Assembly (NCBI GenBank): GCA_963751005.1
Contig: CAVVSY010000004.1
Coordinates: forward strand, 384,502 to 448,501
Reading direction: 5' to 3'
From: an uncultured bacterium
GTDB taxonomy: Bacteria > Actinomycetota > Acidimicrobiia > Spongiisociales > ZC4RG35
Length of the DNA: 64,000 nt
The position numbers were made by a program, and so were the translations under genes. The notes below the pieces were generated by a model. It saw nothing but the letters and a program-made list of their open reading frames with translations. It was not told where the DNA came from and did not search any database. This document shows, in pieces, positions 51,127-60,586 of the stretch; position 1 is the stretch's first letter, and every line of letters begins with the position of its first letter.

Positions 51127-51147
51127 TACGCTGGCCGGGTGACCGTC

Positions 51148-52046
51148 CTGGCCACCACACCAACGGTCGGAGACGACCTCGTCGCATTCGACACGAGTCT
51201 CCAGCTGGGCGGGTCAGAGCCCCTGGGAGCGGGGGTCAAGCGGGTGACCATGGAACAGCTGGAGCTGGCCGCCGCCGGCTTCTTCGCCCCCGAGACGTCG
51301 TTGGGCGGTGCCGTCCACGAGTCGCGAAAGTCGATCAAGCGGGTGCGGGCCATGCTTCGTCTCGTGCGTGGCGAGATCCCGTCACGGATCTACGAATTCG
51401 AGAACGGCTCGTTGCGTGACACCGGTCGTCTGCTCACCGAGATCAGGTCGTCACAGGGCGTTCTCAACGCCGCCCTCTCCATCCGGGACATCTACGGCGA
51501 TTTGCTGGCCGACAGGACCTTCACGGACATGATCGAGACGGCTGTCTCGGCGCCGCGATCTCACCGAGCTCAATGCCCATCGAGGATCCCCATCTCGTCG
51601 GCCGGGTGGTGAGGAGCCTGGAACGCGCCTATCACCGCTACGGATCGTGGTCTACCGATCCCGAGGCCAGAGAGGCATATGGGATGGGCATCAGGGACGA
51701 GTTCGCAGCGCTGGAATCGGGACTCGGTGCCACCTACACCTCAGGGCGCCGCACCATGGCGACCGCGTACACCAGATCCGGACCGGGTGACTTCCACGCG
51801 TGGCGCAAGCGGGTCAAGGACATGCGACACCAGATGGAGTTCCTCGCCCCACTCTGGCCGGAGGTGGTGGTCGGGATGGCCATGACTCTGCATCGTCTCG
51901 GCGACCTCCTCGGGGAGGACAACGACCTGGCCGAGCTGATGTCGTTGCTCGCCCATCGCCCTGACCTCTGCCCCAACCCCAGCGAGAGGTCGCTGTTCCG
52001 GGCCCTGGCCACCCAGCGTCGTCTCGAGCTGCAGAACGGCCAGTGA
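51148..52046 (+). CDS. CHAD-domain protein; one frameshift near 51560
   Basis: ...VHESRKSIKRVRAMLRLVRGEI... and ...FHAWRKRVKDMRHQMEFLAPLWPE... match conserved-histidine alpha-helical domain signatures. Confidence 0.65.
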
Positions 52047-52255
52047 GATCCTGGGGAGACGGGTCTACGCCGAGAGACCCAAGGCACTCACTCACCGTTT
52101 CGGGGAGTACTGGGGGGCGCGGCACATGGCGATCACGGGTCAGCTCGACACGCTCGTCGTCTGCTGACCACCCAACCGTTTCGGGAATCCACCCGGCCGG
52201 GGTCGCGTTGAGAGATTTCGACGACGAACCGGAGGTCTCCAGTCGGAGGTGACAC

Positions 52256-52989: not shown

Positions 52990-54262
52990 CCCGTCTCACA
53001 GCTGGCCCGACTGCCCCGCCGCCATGGTCCGCCAGATAACCGGGGTCGTCGTACCTGCTGAGCAGGAAGGCGTCGGCATATCCCGGGAGGTCGGTTCGTC
53101 GGGAGATGTCTGGCCAGGAGATCGGCGGCACCCGCGGACACCATCACCCCGAACCCCGACATCCCGGTCATGAGACTGATCCCCGGCGATGCCGGATGGC
53201 CCCACCAGATGGGCGATTCTCCCGGGTCTTGGTGTAGTAGCCCCCGTCGACGACCGACTCGGGCAGCCGGTCGTGGTAGACGCCGAGTCCCGGGACCATC
53301 GTCGTCAAGCCTGCGCATCACCACCTCGGGGTAGAGCGGGTCCTCGGGCAGGGGCCACGATGGCTCGAGGACGTTGCCCGTGGTATTCCCAGAGGGCCAG
53401 CACGTAGGGCGACTCCCGCACCACCCTCGGGGCGGAAGTGGCAGAACACCGGCATCTCCCCCAGGACGTCGTCCCTCCCCATCTCGGCGAGGCCCGCCCT
53501 CTCCTCCTCGCTCCAGTCGATCTCCTGGGTGTCACTCCAGATCGTCATCGGCGCTTCCCTCGGGATGACCCGAGATGGTCCTTGAACGCCACCTTGAGGT
53601 GGAGCTCGGAGAAGAGGGGCAGATCGACCCCGGCCATGGCCGCGACCGGGCCACTCATCGGGCCCGCCGCGATCACGATCTCCTCGGTGGCAACGGTCGA
53701 CCCGTCTGACAGGGTGACCTGACCCGAGGCGAGGCCGGTGACAGCTGCAGTGTGCAGCGCCACCCCGGCGTCGCGGCACCGGTCGAGCATCCATTGGCCG
53801 AGGTCCTGGGCGCGGAACCAACCGGCGCGAGGCACCCGAATCGCCCCGACGGCCTTGTCGGTGATGAAGGGGTGACCTCGACGGAGGTCATCGGCGTCGA
53901 GGATCTCTGCACGGGCGCCGAGGGCGGCGACCTCGTTCGCCTGACGGGAGAATCCGTCGAGGGTGGCCGTCTCACCGGTCACGAACAGATAGCCGTTCTG
54001 GTTGAAGCCGAACTCGGTGATCCCGGCCAGCTCTTCGAAGATGTCGATCGAGCGATTCATCAGACCCACCATCGATGCGTTCGGCCACCAGTTGCGATAG
54101 CACTCCGTGGACTTGTCCGAGGTGAGCGTCAGCGGGGGTCGAGGGTCGACGATCAGGATGTCCGGCCGGCCGTGCCGGACCGCGAGGTGGTAGGCAGCCG
54201 ACACCCCGGCGATGCCGGCACCGATCACGACGACGTCGTGCCGGTGGCTCAACGACCCAGGT
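52990..54262 (-). CDS. FAD-dependent oxidoreductase (DAO family; sarcosine/glycine-oxidase-like); three or more frameshifts
   Basis: Rossmann dinucleotide motif [20 protein letters not shown] at the N-terminus (about 54230). The remainder is spread over 53545.., 53318.. and 52935.. frames. Confidence 0.6.
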
Positions 54263-56193
54263 GGGTCAGCACCTTCCCGGCTATGGCCTGGGCAGTGAAC
54301 CCGAAGTGCTCGGCGAGCTCTTCCGCGGGTGCCGAGGCGCCGAAGTGGTCGATCCCGATGCTGAGAGCCTCCTCGAGTCCGACGAACCGCTCCCATCCGA
54401 ATGTCGAGGCGGCCTCGACGGAGACCCGCGGAGCGGTTCCGAGGACTTCGCTCCTGTACTCCTCGGACTGCTCGGCGAAGAGCTCCCAACACGGCATGCT
54501 CACCACCCTCGCCTCGGTACCCTCCCGACCGAGGAGGTCGGCGGCGTCGAGGGCGGCGGACACCTCCGACCCTGTGGCGATGATGGTGACGTCACTGCCC
54601 TGTCGGACCACGTAACCGCCCTTGTCGAGCTGCCCCTTGGGGAGAGTCGGGAGGTTCTGACGGCTGAGGACCAATGCGACCGGTCCGTCGCCCCGGTTGA
54701 GGGCCACCTCCCAGGCCTGCACCACCTCGTTGGCGTCGGCCGGACGGATCACCCAGAGCCCGGGCATCGCCCGCAAGGAGGCGAGGTGCTCGATGGGTTG
54801 GTGGGTGGGGCCGTCCTCACCGAGGAAGATCGAGTCGTGGGTCCAGACCCAGACCGAGGGAATCCCCATGAGGGCAGAGAGGCGGACCGCCGGTCTCATG
54901 TAGTCGCTGAAGACGAAGAAGGTCGCCCCGTACGGTTTGAGCCCACCATGGATGGCCAGCCCGTTGACGACAGCCCCCATTCCGTGCTCCCTGACCCCGA
55001 AGGGGATGTCACGGGCGGCCCGATCTGCCGGCGAGTACAGCCGGCCGGGCTCGATCACTGTCTTGGTCGACTCGGCGAGATCGGCCGACCCACCGATGAA
55101 GCCCGGGGCCTTCTCCGCGATCTCGGCGAAGAGCCGGCCGGAAGAGGCCCGGGTGGCCAGTGTCTCCCCTTCGGGGAAGCCGGGCCCTTCGAGACTCAAC
55201 GGGCCCGCGGAGTGCAGCGCCTCCCACGTCGACGTGTCGGACGGCTCGAAACCGCTCACCCATTCGGCACGGGCGTCCCTGCCCCTGGCCATGGCGTCGG
55301 TGAAGAAGTCGTAGACGCTCGGCTCGACGTGAAATGTGGGCTCGAGCGGGTATCCCATGGCCGTCTTGGCGAGGGCGACCTCCTCGTCGCCGAGGGGGGA
55401 GCCGTGGGCCTTGCGCCGTGTCCTGGGCATTGGGAGCACCGTGACCGATGTTGGTGTGACAGATCGACCAGGCTCGGGCGGTCCTGCTCGGCCCGGGCCG
55501 TCTCGATCGCCTCGGCGATGGCGCCGCGATCGTGGCCGTCGACTGCGAGCGTGTGCCAGCCGACCGCTTCGAACCTGGCGGCCACGTCCTCGGTGAACGT
55601 GATGCTGGTCGACCCGTCGATCGAGATCTCGTTGTCGTCGTAGAGATAGAGTCAGCCTTCCCAGCCGGAAATGGCCGGCGAGCGACGCCGACTCCGAGCT
55701 GATCCCCTCCATCAGGTCCCCGTCGGAGACGAAGCCATAGGTGTCGTGATCCACCAGGTCGGGGCCGAGACGAGCCCGCAGGTTGGTCTCGGCGAGCGCC
55801 ATGCCCACACCTGCTGGCGAAGCCCTGGCCCAGCGGCCCGGTGGTCATCTCGATCCCCAGCTCGTGGGCGATCTCGGGGTGGCCGGCGGTGTGGGATCCC
55901 CATTGCCGGAACTGACGGATGTCGTCGAGGCTGATGGGAAAGCCGGAGAGATGGAGCATCGAGTAGAGGAGCATCGACCCGTGCCCGTTGGAGAGCACGA
56001 AGCGATCCCGGTCCGGCCATTCGGGATGGCCGGGGTCGACCCTGAGGAAACGGGTCCAGAGGGTGACGGCGATGTCGGCCATTCCCATCGGCATGCCGGG
56101 ATGCCCGGAGTTGGCCTTCTGCACTGCGTCCATGGCGAGGGCGCGGATGGTGTCGACCGCCAATTGTTCGATTGGTCTCGGATCCATTGCCAT
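54249..56193 (-). CDS. tkt: Transketolase; two or more frameshifts
   Basis: N-terminus [39 protein letters not shown] (TPP motif). ...GPLGQGF.... C-terminal half 54249..55808 frame (…[21 protein letters not shown]…). Confidence 0.9.
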
Positions 56194-56242: not shown

Positions 56243-56947
56243 TCAGCCCAGCGGCCGGCACACCTCGCAGGGGGCGTACCCCGCCACCCGGGCGGCCTCG
56301 GCGCTCCTGAAGCCGATCCTCTGCCCTGTGCTGGAGCGCACCACCCGGCACGTGGGGTGGCAATAGACGAGAGTCGCCGGGTCGCCCTGGAGCCTGATGT
56401 GATGGCTGGCCATGTCCTCGAGCCAGACCGGGCTTGCGCCCTCATGTTCGAGAAGCTCCACCTTGTTGTGGGGGCCGCCCAGGGAGTAGTTCCCGATGTG
56501 GCCATCCGTGCGCACCACCCGATGACATGGGATGATCAGCGGGATGGGGTTGCGGGCAACCGCCGAACCGACGGCGCGAACCGCATTGGGACGGTCGACC
56601 TCGCGTGCCACCCAGCCATAGGGACGGACCTCGCCCTTGGGGATGGTCGCCGTGGTGAGCAGCACCTGGCGCTGGAAGCCGGTGACGGACCGGAGGTCGA
56701 CCGGGAGCTGTCCGGGGGTCCCCTTCTCGATGGCCTCGGGGATGTGGCTTCGCCAGGCCGCAGGGGCCTCGGCCCTGATGAGGCGACGCCCTCCGAACCG
56801 CTGACGATGGCGGGTCTCGAAGTCGTCCGCGATGTCGAGGAACGAGACACCCTCCGGGTTGAAGGCGACGACGACCTCTCCGATGGCCGACTCGTAGACG
56901 TCGTATCCGTCGGCGAGGCCCGTGCCCAGGGCGACCCCCTCGCTCAT
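56243..56947 (-). CDS. ogt: O6-methylguanine-DNA methyltransferase (Ogt/MGMT) fused to a C-terminal Ada-type zinc-binding (methylphosphotriester-sensing) domain
   Basis: Intact 234 aa. MGMT active site IPCHRVV plus HTH. C-terminal ...[13 protein letters not shown]...[21 protein letters not shown] resembles the Ada_Zn_binding Cys4 pattern (CxxxC...CxxC). Confidence 0.85.
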
Positions 56948-56995
56948 GCCCGCCGGGCATGGGACCGGTGAGTAGCTCCAGTTGTGATTCGATGG

Positions 56996-57514
56996 TCATG
57001 ACTCTTCCTCCATGATCTGTCTGAGACGGCTCAAGCCGCGATGGATGTCTGCTTTGACGGTGCCTTCTGGTCGTCCGGTGACCTCGGCGATCTCGGCCGT
57101 CCCGAGACCGGCGATGTGCCGCAACACGACGGCGGCGCGTTGATGGGCGTTGAGCCGGGACAGACGGCCGTCCCAGGCCGCTTCGTCGATTGGTTCCGGA
57201 TCGTCAGCTCCCGAGTCGACCTTCAGCTCCACATAGGTGGGACGACGGGAGCGATCGCGCAGATGGTTGCGTCCCAGATTCATGGCGATGGTCCACAGCC
57301 AGGGACGCAACTGCAATTCGAGGATGCGCTCACGCTCGTATCCGTCGAGGGCGCGGTAGGCCCTGATGAACGTCTCTTGGGTCAAGTCCTCCGCCTCCTG
57401 GTGGTCGCCGCAGAGTCGGCGCAGACCCCAGAACACCTGGCTCCCCATGGTCTCGACCACGAGGGGAAATGCCGTGTCGAGATCACGCGCCAGGTCGTCG
57501 ATGAGAGCCTCCAT
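56996..57514 (-). CDS. ECF-subfamily RNA polymerase sigma-70 factor
   Basis: Region 2 (…DLTQETFIRAYRALDGYE…) and region 4 HTH (…AVVLRHIAGLGTAEIAEVTGRPEGTVKADIHRGLSRLR). The ORF extends to 57556, but the MEALIDDL start at 57514 leaves a plausible divergent promoter region. Confidence 0.85.
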   Translation of the reverse strand: MEALIDDLARDLDTAFPLVVETMGSQVFWGLRRLCGDHQEAEDLTQETFIRAYRALDGYERERILELQLRPWLWTIAMNLGRNHLRDRSRRPTYVELKVDSGADDPEPIDEAAWDGRLSRLNAHQRAAVVLRHIAGLGTAEIAEVTGRPEGTVKADIHRGLSRLRQIMEEES

Positions 57515-57574
57515 CACAGGAAGGAACCCCCATTCGGCACATCCGGTTGCACCCATGGCACCGTACCTATATTT

Positions 57575-58265
57575 GTGAACGTGGCAATACCCGACATCGA
57601 CGTCTCCCTGGCTCGGGCCGAGACGGCTCTAGCCGAAGGGCGGCCGCTGGTGGGGACGGGGTTCTGGTCCGCCGTCGATCAGGTGAAACGACACCCCGAT
57701 CTCGTCGAGGCGCACGCCGATCGGATCGGTGTGATCGACCGTGAGGCGTTCGAGAGATGGGCGGTGCTCACCGTCCCCATCGGCCTGGGAACCATGTTGA
57801 TGGTGCTGGCGACGGTCCTCGGAGTCGCACTCGTCGGTCTGGCCTATCTCCCCGAGGAGTGCGATCCTGGCAACGATCGTCTTCTTCGTCGGTCTCGGGG
57901 TACTCCTGGTGTCTACCCATGGTCTCGCCCATCTGATCGTGGGTCGCAGCTCGGGGATGAGGTTCACCCATTGGTTCATCGGGAAGCTGGTGCAGCCTCA
58001 GCCCGGGGTGAAAGTCGACTACGCCAGCTATCTACGGACGCCGGCGCGGTCCCGTGCCGTGATGCATGCCGCCGGGGCGGTGACCACCAAGTTCATCCCG
58101 TTCCTTCTCATCGGAGCGGCGGTCGCCGCAGGGCTCCCTGATTGGGCGGTGTGGGCGCTTCCGGTGATCGGCGTGGTGATGATCGTCATCGACGTGGCAT
58201 GGTCGACCAAGAAGTCGGACTGGGCCAAGTACCGCAGGGAGATGGAGTTCGCTCAGGAACCCTGA
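57575..58265 (+). CDS. Hypothetical polytopic membrane protein (divergent from the ECF sigma gene); one frameshift
   Basis: TM segments VLTVPIGLGTMLMVLATVLGVALVGLAY, FFVGLGVLLVSTHGLAHLIVG, FLLIGAAVAAGLPDWAVWALPVIGVVMIVIDVAW. GTG start. Confidence 0.5.
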
Positions 58266-58630
58266 TCCTGCTGCGGGATGGACCCGTCGGTCTGGTGCAT
58301 CTCGTCGTGGGCGGCGACCAGGCTCTCGAAGTTCGATGGGTCCTCGACATCGATTGCGATCAAGTGGCGGGTGCGCGGGCCATCCTCGATGTCGAAGTCA
58401 CGGGCGCGGCGCAGCAGGGCGGCGGCGGCGTCGTCGATACGACGGTGCTGGGCCATGTGGTCCTCCCAGCTCTGCAAGACCATCAGCTCGGTGACTCGTG
58501 TCGGCTCCGACGTGTTGCGAAAGAGACGCCACCGATAGGCCCCGGTGCTCAGCCGAACCAGTCTCACCTCGTTCATCACTCTGGTGAACTCGACGAAGTC
58601 AGACTCGGCGATCTTCCAGGTGTTGAGGAC
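58253..58630 (-). CDS. Small ABM/Dabb-like or DUF domain protein (possibly a C-terminal extension of the MFS gene)
   Basis: ...MVLNTWKIAESDFVEFTRVMNEVRLVRLSTGAYRWRLFRNTSEPTRVTELMVLQSWEDHMAQHRR.... Whether it is separate from the MFS gene cannot be decided. Confidence 0.4.
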   Translation of the reverse strand, partial: VLNTWKIAESDFVEFTRVMNEVRLVRLSTGAYRWRLFRNTSEPTRVTELMVLQSWEDHMAQHRRIDDAAAALLRRARDFDIEDGPRTRHLIAIDVEDPSNFESLVAAHDEMHQTDGSIPQQDQGS

Positions 58631-58639
58631 CATCACCGG

Positions 58640-59918
58640 CCCACCCTCGAAGGTCTCGTCGTCGTCGTGGGTCGGCACCGAGACCTCGGTGAACTCGGGA
58701 GTCACCACGGCATCGACGTGGGGCACGTTGAAACGGGGGGCGAACAGGCCCAAGGCGACGGCACCGGTGGAGAAGACGCAGCAACGACCCGGGAGTGCCC
58801 ACCTGGTCGGCGAGTGAGCCCGGCGAGGATCGACCCGATGGGGATCACTCCGGCGAAGGCCAGGGAGTAGATGGACATCGCCCGGCCCCGGATCCACGAC
58901 GGCGACATCAACTGCGCCGTGGCGTTGAGGGTTGCCAGCGTCAGCAGCCAGAACAGCCCGGCCAGGAACATGGCCAGCCCTCCGACCAGGACGTTCGGCG
59001 CCAGTCCGAGCAGGATGCCGGATGCTCCGAAGAGGGTGATCGTGTACGGGACCCAGGAGCCTTCCACCCATTTGCTCGAGCCGGGGTCGGAGCAACACAC
59101 CGAAGAGGGCGCCCACGCCCATGGCTCCGTACAAGACCCCGAAGGCCAACCTCCCCGCCACCCGAGATAGAGCGGTGTGCACCGGGAGCACCGACTGGAC
59201 GACGGCCGAAGTCGATGCGAAGAGCGAGACCAGGGCCAGGAGGTTGCGGAAGGAGGGGGTGAACCTGGCGAAGCGCAGCCCGGTCGAGATCGCCGATCGC
59301 ATCGAGCGCGAGGCCTCCTTGGCGGTGCCGGCGAGGCTGCGGCCCGATGACGATCAGGGCGACGATGATCGCCCACGTAGGACAGGGCGTTGAAGGCGAA
59401 TCCGGCCTCGGCTCCGTAGACGGCGACGAGGACGCCCCCGAAGGCGGGGCCGATGGCGCGCGCGGCGTTGAAGGCGGCCGAGTTGAGCGCCACCGCCGAG
59501 GTCACGAGGTTCCGCGGCACGAGGTCGGGCACCAAGCGCCTGCCAGGAGGGGAGGTTGAGGGCGAAACCCGTCCCGAGGATCAGACCGAGGGCGAGGAGG
59601 AGAGCCGGCGTCATCAAGTCGAGGAAGGTGAGCACCGCCATCGCCGCCGCCGCACCCACCCATGACGGTTTGGGCGATGAGCATCAGCTTGGCCCGGTTG
59701 AAACGGTCGGCGAGGGCGCCGGCGGTGAGGGAGAAGAAGAGAAGGGGCAGAGTCGACGAGGCCACGATCAGACCCACCCATGTGTTCGAGCCGGTGAGCT
59801 CGAACATCAGCCACGAGGCGGCCACGGTCTGGACGAACGTGCCCGATGAGGACAAGACGTTGCCGGCCCAGAGCCAGCGGAAGTTGGGGTACCTGAGTGG
59901 CTCGACCGCCGACGACAT
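58640..59918 (-). CDS. MFS transporter (EntS/YbdA-like efflux family); two or more frameshifts
   Basis: N-terminus MSSAVEPLRYPNFRWLWAGNVLSSSGTFVQTVAASWLM.... Further TM blocks in the 58702..59535 and 58253..59302 frames. Confidence 0.7.
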
Positions 59919-59945: not shown

Positions 59946-60586
59946 ATGTCCGTGGTGCGTGACCTCGCCTATTTCGTCTCCGGAGACGCCGGAAAGGGCC
60001 CCGGCGTGCTCCTCCTCCACTCGCTGTGGGGCCTCACCTCTTCGGTGAAAGGGCTCTGTGATTCACTGGCCGACGAGGGGTTCACGGTCCTCGCCCCCGA
60101 CATCAACTTCGGCGAGCTGCCCGCCACCGAGGCGGAGGGCATCGACCGGCTCGGTGAGGCGAGCCCCGATCGTCTCGCTGCCCTGGTCCTGACGACGGCA
60201 CGTCTCGTCGATGCGCAGTCGGCGCCTGGCCCGATCGGCATCGTCGGGTTCGGGATGGGCGGGTCGCTGGCCTTGTGGGCATCGGTGCGGCTGCCCGAGG
60301 TGGTCGCGGCGACCGTTTCGTTCTACGGCACACAGCAGATCGACTTCGCCGGGTCGAAATCGTCGTACCTCGTCCACTTCGCCGAAGAGGATCGAGTACA
60401 TCACCGACGACGAGGCCGCGTTCATGGAGGCGACGATCGGGCTGGAGTCGTTGCCGATGGACGATCATCACCTATGCCGGGACCAAGCACGGGTTCTGTG
60501 AGCCGGACGGGTCGACATTCGACCCCGACGCCTTCGAGAAGGCATGGGAGCGGACCGTTGAGTTCCTCCACAGCACGCTCGGCTAG
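59946..60586 (+). CDS. Dienelactone hydrolase-family protein; two frameshifts
   Basis: ...GPGVLLLHSLWGLTSSVKGLCDSLADEGFTVLAPD...VGFGMGGSLAL.... C-terminus ...YAGTKHGFCEPDGSTFDPDAFEKAWERTVEFL. Confidence 0.7.

Follow-up and report, generated by a model that had tools for sequence, protein, structure and literature searches.

What is a DNA-repair alkyltransferase doing directly behind the gene of an extracytoplasmic function (ECF) sigma factor, in the position of an anti-sigma factor? The question is raised by two genes on the minus strand of a 64,000-nucleotide stretch (contig CAVVSY010000004.1, positions 384,502 to 448,501) from an uncultured member of the Acidimicrobiia, which was analysed at its full length and is called the window below. 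The first gene (56996..57514) encodes the sigma factor. The second (56243..56999) encodes its partner, an O6-methylguanine methyltransferase (MGMT) that ends in a Cys4 zinc domain of the type found at the N-terminus of Ada (N-Ada, or AdaZn). Among alternative sigma factors the ECF type forms the largest family. If the partner is an anti-sigma factor, ECF signalling gains a further kind of input, namely DNA alkylation damage.

The comparisons reported here favour, at slightly better than even chances, a two-gene, self-regulated ECF module, in which the partner would be a cytoplasmic anti-sigma-like protein with a suicide DNA-alkyltransferase as its sensor. A regulatory partnership between the two proteins appears well supported by the comparative evidence. 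The sigma factor is likely bound by the N-terminus of the partner, which looks like what is left of an anti-sigma domain, and not by the Ada zinc domain.

Linkage of the partner family to sigma factor genes

Relatives of the partner were searched for in one genome per species, and 80 loci encoding them were found. The carriers belong to the Acidimicrobiia, several classes of the Chloroflexota, the Thermoanaerobaculia, Entotheonella and others; the family was common in Chloroflexia, Limnocylindrales, Anaerolineae, Ktedonobacterales, Thermoanaerobaculia and Candidatus Entotheonella (L003-L082). At all 73 of these loci with enough upstream sequence, the gene directly upstream has the same orientation and encodes a homolog of the window's sigma factor (phmmer, E 1e-14 to 1e-86). 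A sigma gene was also directly upstream at 53 of the 54 metagenome loci with upstream sequence, which brings the combined count to 126 of 127 related loci. The preliminary description of this locus had proposed a survey of homologs for co-occurrence with sigma genes. At 69 of 76 genome loci the two genes share 4 bp, where the stop codon of the sigma gene and the start codon of the partner gene run together as ATGA or GTGA. Clustering of the neighboring open reading frames (ORFs) of the 76 loci detected broad conservation of no gene family besides the sigma-partner pair; the remaining clusters resemble shadow ORFs of high-GC DNA and were discarded. A search with sigma and partner concatenated as the query gave no natural sigma-MGMT fusion among its top matches, none of which is longer than 253 aa.

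The partner begins with an N-terminal extension of about 28 residues (56915..56999, minus strand). The linkage to sigma follows this extension and not the zinc domain, because none of the six loci encoding MGMT-AdaZn proteins without the extension (229-250 aa; L143, L163/L164, L165, the P0311 locus, L169 and L175, which make up roughly three independent lineages) has an adjacent sigma gene, while proteins that combine the extension with an MGMT but have no zinc domain (P0264; L170-172) are encoded downstream of a sigma gene, again with the 4-bp overlap. Many of the cluster representatives without a zinc domain bear the same extension.

In a subfamily of 298 aa the extension is longer, helical and not of the zinc-associated anti-sigma (ZAS) type, and the operon consists of the sigma gene, the gene of the extension-MGMT-AdaZn protein and a separate gene for a canonical Ogt. 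The extra Ogt suggests a division of labor, with one of the two proteins serving as sensor and the other doing the repair. The AlphaFold model of the 298-aa form has an N-terminal extension of three helices, predicted with moderate confidence, for which a full-length Foldseek search gave no match to an anti-sigma domain. No second ogt was found in the 64-kb window.

Two gene arrangements were observed besides. At L166, L167, L168 and the P0381 locus, the operon of the 298-aa type contains, in order, genes for a 4HBT thioesterase, the ECF sigma factor, the 298-aa protein and a canonical Ogt of 138-172 aa. At L169 (3001-4764), an extension-less MGMT-AdaZn protein is encoded beside AlkA (AlkA_N + HhH-GPD) and a divergent MarR gene with no sigma gene, which is a more classical repair context.

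Homology of the extension to anti-sigma domains

For protein comparisons the relatives were sampled as representatives of clusters at 50% identity, of which 157 were obtained at E <=1e-30 and the best 150 were annotated. PF01035 was detected in 149 of these 150 and Ada_Zn_binding in 77. A zf-HC2/ZAS domain was found in front of the MGMT-AdaZn part in seven clusters by Pfam and in about 13 by eye. A regulatory partnership of the window pair is plausible because these sister proteins carry a genuine ZAS domain. In the ZAS forms C4, H30, C34 and C37 are invariant, and the genes lie directly 3' of an ECF sigma gene, with an overlap of 11-14 nt (L083, L084, L144, L176).

The short extension has the consensus L..L...AP..L...VL..GLADGY. 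Its residues 3-27 were aligned by hhalign to residues 47-71 of the ZAS forms, directly after H30-C34-C37 (90%, E 1.6e-6), and MAFFT also placed the extension on this post-zinc segment. On these alignments the extension looks like the remnant of an anti-sigma domain. The preliminary description had recognized no anti-sigma factor behind the sigma gene. This agrees with the window partner having no Pfam match to the anti-sigma domain PF13490 and no HxxxCxxC motif, but it leaves aside the first ~27 residues, which align with the post-zinc segment of the ZAS forms and are probably related to it.

Structural comparisons of the partner were made with the AlphaFold2 model of a 97%-identical homolog (P0001). 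The model has a predicted local distance difference test (pLDDT) of 90.8 and a predicted template modelling score (pTM) of 0.86, with a confident body made up of the MGMT and zinc domains. The N-terminal helix is of low confidence (pLDDT <50 for residues 1-10), as expected for an element that binds a partner.

Alkyltransferase and zinc domains

The N- and C-domains of the MGMT/Ogt part occupy 56435..56914 (minus strand). The Pfam match to PF01035 scored 101 bits, matches of the sequence to the Protein Data Bank (PDB) include 1sfe (E 1.4e-21), and the Foldseek search with the P0001 model was headed by MGMT structures (1sfe, E 8.5e-11, TMt 0.80). The active site reads IPCHRVV, with PCHRV at 56516-56530 and the codon of the acceptor cysteine, Cys158, at 56525-56527. 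The arginine finger R141 as well as Y127, N150 (the Asn hinge), H159 and E186 do not vary among 120 homologs, and 137 of the 138 sigma-linked relatives retain the acceptor cysteine. Judged by its residues, the MGMT of the partner is catalytically intact.

The MGMT is followed by a linker helix and the N-Ada-type Cys4 zinc domain (56249..56425, minus strand). The PF02805 (Ada_Zn_binding) match reached 30 bits against a cut-off of 23 and covers only positions 24-64 of the 65 in the profile. When the isolated zinc domain was aligned to residues 34-74 of 1adn with phmmer, all four cysteines were in register; their codons and Ada equivalents are 56360-56362 (C38), 56348-56350 (C42), 56267-56269 (C69) and 56258-56260 (C72). 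In the Foldseek search, the N-Ada structures 1u8b, 1wpk, 1zgw and 1adn were the next recognizable matches after those of the MGMT family, at E 0.07-0.3, and the 1u8b match of the zinc domain has a root-mean-square deviation of 2.0 A over 53 columns. The equivalent of Ada Cys38 (Cys213) is kept in 132 of the 133 sigma-linked proteins that have a zinc domain. A Pfam/NCBIfam scan of the partner detected no AraC helix-turn-helix, and the NCBIfam Ada equivalog scored 96.6 bits, against a cut-off of 345.

The architecture of an MGMT followed by an N-Ada-type Cys4 domain, with the domain order of Ada reversed and no AraC helix-turn-helix, is the one that had been read from the letters in the preliminary description. 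The fold matches agree with it, clearly for 1sfe and tentatively for 1u8b, and the Pfam search of the 234-aa ORF that it proposed gave PF01035 and Ada_Zn_binding, the latter above its cut-off.

Gene boundaries and assembly quality

The sigma gene encodes 172 aa from the ATG at 57514, or 173 aa from an alternative GTG at 57517, and ends with the TGA at 56996-56998. Pfam matches were obtained to Sigma70_r2 (PF04542, E 4e-15), Sigma70_r4_2 (PF08281, E 3e-13) and also Sigma70_ECF (PF07638), and TIGR02937 of NCBIfam matched at 71 bits (cut-off 42.9). The protein consists of regions 2 and 4 and has no region 3, which fits an ECF (group 4) sigma factor of ~170-200 aa. It aligns in one frame to a 173-aa ortholog in L001, a related locus from the Acidimicrobiia. 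A longer ORF of 186 aa, beginning at 57556, was rejected; it finds no support in the length of this ortholog or in the position of the promoter.

The ATG of the partner gene (56999-56997) overlaps the sigma stop codon as ATGA, that is by 4 bp. A Shine-Dalgarno sequence, GGAGG (57007..57011, minus strand), lies within the last codons of the sigma gene and is kept in L001. As assembled, the downstream ORF covers only 56243-56947 (234 aa). DNA alignment with L001 located one extra base in the run GGCGGGC (~56948-56951), which breaks the frame 17 codons into the gene; once this is repaired the gene encodes 251 aa, in line with the 248-253 aa of the 120 best-scoring homologs. All seven homologs whose starts were read open with M[ST][IV]ES[QR]L..., and the window encodes a matching N-terminus, MTIESQLELLTGPMPGG, from the ATG at 56999. 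The internal methionine that starts the 234-aa ORF is a methionine in only 12 of the 120 homologs. An intact 251-aa protein, 97% identical to the window partner, exists in other data (P0001).

Frame breaks of this kind are common in the region. When orthologous proteins of L001 were compared by tblastn with the window between 50.7 and 62.8 kb, nearly every gene was split into two to four frames. The neighbors affected include tkt (54252-56169, in four frames), MFS (58262-59918), DLH (59952-60580) and CHAD (51139-52161), as well as DAO, NTP_transf_9, NUDIX and an acetyltransferase. By its appearance the window is an assembly rich in indels that have not been corrected, and ORF-based readings elsewhere in it call for equal caution. 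Because the assembly is rich in indels and the extra base hides the true start, the intergenic gap of 48 bp in the preliminary description is an artefact, and the start it had assumed for the 234-aa ORF has to be given up as well. On the repaired reading, the true arrangement of the two genes is a 4-bp overlap with no gap, and an ATGA overlap of this form predicts that they are translationally coupled.

The promoter of the sigma-partner operon

An ECF-type promoter, TGCAAC-N18-GTT, was recognized upstream of the sigma gene (57523..57551, minus strand; motif 57525-57551). It comprises the -35 element TGCAAC (57546-57551), an 18-nt spacer, and GTT within GGGTTCC (57523-57529). The GTT ends 10 nt before the ATG of the sigma gene, and from this spacing the mRNA of the operon is probably leaderless or nearly so. 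The window contains a single match to the motif, where chance alone would give 0.10. Of 75 orthologous upstream regions 64 contain it too, 59 of the 64 with a spacer of exactly 18 nt, and the distance from GTT to the start codon is 10 nt in 39 orthologous regions. Among the 62 fetched loci with a match, 61 have one motif each and L082 has two overlapping matches. The same promoter is found upstream in the subfamily without a zinc domain. Beyond the -35 and -10 elements, no conserved element resembling an Ada box was seen in the orthologous sigma upstream regions.

Proposed mechanism and alternatives

In the mechanism proposed for the self-regulated module, the unmodified partner would hold the sigma factor through its N-terminal extension, perhaps together with the N-domain of the MGMT. 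The irreversible transfer of an alkyl group from damaged DNA (O6-alkylguanine) to Cys158 would change or destabilize the partner, and Cys213 might also accept the alkyl group of a methylphosphotriester. The freed sigma factor would transcribe its own leaderless operon, supplying fresh sigma factor and alkyltransferase in a fixed ratio, until unalkylated partner was again in excess and the response ended. The net effect would be an adaptive response of the Ada type that is built on an ECF sigma factor instead of an AraC helix-turn-helix. The preliminary description had proposed that a zinc-domain protein controls the sigma factor. The sister proteins with ZAS domains make such a partnership plausible, but the role given to the zinc domain is not supported, as the linkage tracks the extension. 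It is an even bet that the family as a whole is a multi-phylum class of cytoplasmic anti-sigma factors that sense through a suicide DNA-alkyltransferase, with lesions consuming the partner and freeing the sigma factor; the window protein would be a minimized form in which just the end of the anti-sigma domain survives.

Several observations weigh against this reading. Of the four-helix anti-sigma domain the window partner has neither the HxxxCxxC motif nor helices I-III, and only ~27 residues are retained. The hhalign match of the extension spans a mere 25 columns, with a high content of Ala, Leu and Pro. Covariation between sigma and partner, computed as mutual information with average product correction (MI/APC) over 134 natural pairs (effective number of sequences, Neff, 113), showed no enrichment of the extension; the highest-ranking pairs came from a few columns that mark clades, and the clade signal dominates this analysis. 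For ECF122 and ECF203, the two catalogued groups compared with the pair below, the group descriptions state that there is no anti-sigma factor (Casas-Pastor et al. 2021, NAR 49:986). Tight linkage and autoregulation would also be expected if the alkyltransferase were merely the main target of the sigma factor.

The part assigned to the zinc domain has its own difficulties. The equivalent of Cys38 is a histidine in 16 of 120 close homologs, P0030 and P0074 among them, whereas the remaining three zinc ligands do not vary. In this His-bearing sub-clade of the Acidimicrobiia (cf. L161) the zinc site is perhaps structural only. At positions of DNA contact in N-Ada, where the family consensus GYRPCKVCRP reads Arg and Lys, the window partner has Ala, Glu and Val instead. 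In the clade of the window the zinc domain looks partly relaxed, and its phosphotriester function may be relaxed too.

Among the alternatives, the one with most in its favor, though rather unlikely, is that the alkyltransferase is the main target of the sigma factor, which would itself be under transcriptional control or under that of a factor encoded away from the locus, while the extension has a role unrelated to sigma. It would agree with the missing Pfam anti-sigma match in the window partner, with the uninformative covariation of the 134 pairs, with the sole TGCAAC-N18-GTT promoter of the window being the one that drives the sigma-partner operon, and with the catalogue, whose descriptions give these groups no anti-sigma factor and hold that context does not separate regulators from targets (Casas-Pastor et al. 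2021). It leaves unexplained why full ZAS domains are fused to sister proteins, why the linkage tracks the extension rather than the enzyme domains, and why the operon of one subfamily contains a separate canonical Ogt. The frame break raises a different objection, namely that the window copy is a pseudogene and the locus non-functional in its host. The 1-nt insertion 17 codons into the partner gene would fit this, but the multiple frame breaks in almost all of the neighbors, which point to assembly error, and an intact 251-aa protein that is 97% identical make it only a very faint prospect.

Two further explanations keep the partner as a regulator and change the way in which it acts. By analogy with Ada, the alkylated partner might be an activator of transcription that binds either DNA or the complex of sigma factor and RNA polymerase, and the sigma factor would not be sequestered. 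Methylated Ada contacts RNA polymerase, and methylation of Cys38 raises the DNA binding of Ada; the C-terminal domain of the partner is an N-Ada homolog and its MGMT domain also binds DNA. But ZAS domains are known to inhibit ECF sigma factors, members without the zinc domain stay linked to sigma, and the upstream regions have no conserved Ada-box-like element beyond -35 and -10, which makes a positive co-factor improbable. Equally doubtful is a direct chemical sensor resembling RsrA, in which electrophiles or oxidants would modify the zinc-thiolate site or the MGMT cysteine without any DNA lesion. A Cys4 zinc site, an active-site cysteine of low pKa, and the second labile zinc site of the ZAS-containing relatives would suit such a sensor, whereas the invariance of the residues for DNA binding and lesion flipping in the MGMT, and the existence of members with neither the zinc domain nor a ZAS domain, would not.

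Should the anti-sigma reading be correct, it would explain how an adaptive response can exist in bacteria without an Ada/AraC regulator, and an Ada-like alkylation response on sigma/anti-sigma logic would extend over the Actinomycetota, Chloroflexota, Acidobacteriota and other phyla. Through such a circuit, a repair protein that serves only once would be renewed at exactly the rate of its consumption. The contrast between proteins with the extension next to a sigma gene and those without either, together with the ZAS fusions in the same position, makes the idea directly testable, and the current study supplies a defined promoter, sites for point mutants (C158 and C213), a segment to delete (residues 1-28) and, for modelling, over 130 naturally occurring pairs of sigma factor and partner.

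Flanking genes

A divergent gene on the plus strand (57575-58259), starting with a GTG at 57575, 57 nt from the sigma start, encodes a membrane protein of ~228 aa with no Pfam match. An AT-rich element at 57563-57574, AAATATAGGTAC on the minus strand, places TATATT on the plus strand just before this GTG and is conserved in the Acidimicrobiia orthologs; it looks like the -10 box of a leaderless divergent transcript. In many Chloroflexota loci (L016-L071), a motif GGATTGTCGCA[CT]G occurs ~70-100 nt upstream of the sigma gene, beyond the sigma promoter, and may simply belong to the beginning of a divergent gene that is conserved there (reverse complement ATGCGACAATCC).

The transketolase gene (54249-56186, minus strand) begins ~56 nt after the partner gene. 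The order sigma, partner, tkt, DAO is kept in L001 from the Acidimicrobiia and was not found to be conserved across the other loci. Neither an intrinsic terminator between the partner gene and the transketolase gene nor a sigma-70-type promoter between the genes was found, and co-transcription of the pair with the downstream transketolase may occur.

Comparison with known systems

The preliminary description knew of no described case of such a pair, but the association of an ECF sigma factor with an MGMT has been catalogued. According to the supplement of the catalogue, an O6-methylguanine methyltransferase is encoded at +1 of ECF122 (Casas-Pastor et al. 2021). The description of ECF203, a group of 104 proteins from Actinobacteria, likewise has an MGMT at +1, and the genomic context further includes Ada_Zn_binding, TetR and an MFS transporter. 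Both groups are described as 100% Actinobacteria with no characterized member, and are among those still listed with an unknown mechanism and without a regulator; ECF203 is said to lack "any obvious regulator", with the remark that context cannot separate regulators from targets (Casas-Pastor et al. 2021). ECF122 appears under "unknown mechanism" in a 2022 review (Int J Mol Sci 2022, 23:3601).

The window pair resembles these groups in having MGMT and Ada_Zn_binding at +1 and its closest homologs in the Acidimicrobiia, a likeness based on gene context and group descriptions, not on scores of the group hidden Markov models. It differs from ECF122, for which the catalogue predicts the promoter CTCAC-Xn-CGTCTAC, in its promoter TGCAAC-N18-GTT; for ECF203 the description has no conserved motif (Casas-Pastor et al. 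2021). Unlike ECF203, the orthologous locus L001 has no TetR gene within ~6 kb. Unlike both groups, the family in the current study reaches the Chloroflexota, Acidobacteriota and other phyla, and the catalogue descriptions make no mention of an N-terminal anti-sigma remnant or of ZAS fusions. The sigma-MGMT association itself was known already. One candidate likeness was dropped: Cys35 of the sigma factor, considered as the "C in sigma2" of ECF122, is a cysteine in only 9 of 77 orthologs.

With E. coli Ada the partner shares the two alkyl-accepting modules, the four zinc cysteines of which align, and the logic would match, as a suicide repair protein would control its own synthesis. The order of N-Ada Cys4 domain, AraC helix-turn-helix and C-terminal MGMT in E. 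coli Ada is reversed in the window partner, which has no AraC helix-turn-helix, and the output would pass through a dedicated ECF sigma factor. The zinc domain differs as well, with a partial PF02805 match (24-64) and substitutions at the basic DNA-contact positions.

Class I ZAS anti-sigma factors (RsrA-SigR, ChrR-RpoE, RslA-SigL) are cytoplasmic proteins whose genes directly follow and overlap the ECF sigma gene, as is the case for the partner. The sister proteins have the C...HxxxCxxC pattern, and the window partner keeps the segment after that motif, without the zinc motif itself and helices I-III. The sensor of the partner would be a DNA-repair enzyme domain; no characterized anti-sigma factor with such a domain, and no report of an alkyltransferase acting as an anti-sigma factor, was found in the literature searched.

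Stand-alone Ogt/MGMT proteins and MGMT-AdaZn fusions such as that of L169 have the same catalytic core, and the fusions also have the same C-terminal zinc domain. They differ from the partner in that they have no N-terminal extension and do not adjoin a sigma gene. The window pair belongs to a catalogued but uncharacterized kind, that of ECF sigma factors with MGMT/AdaZn at +1.

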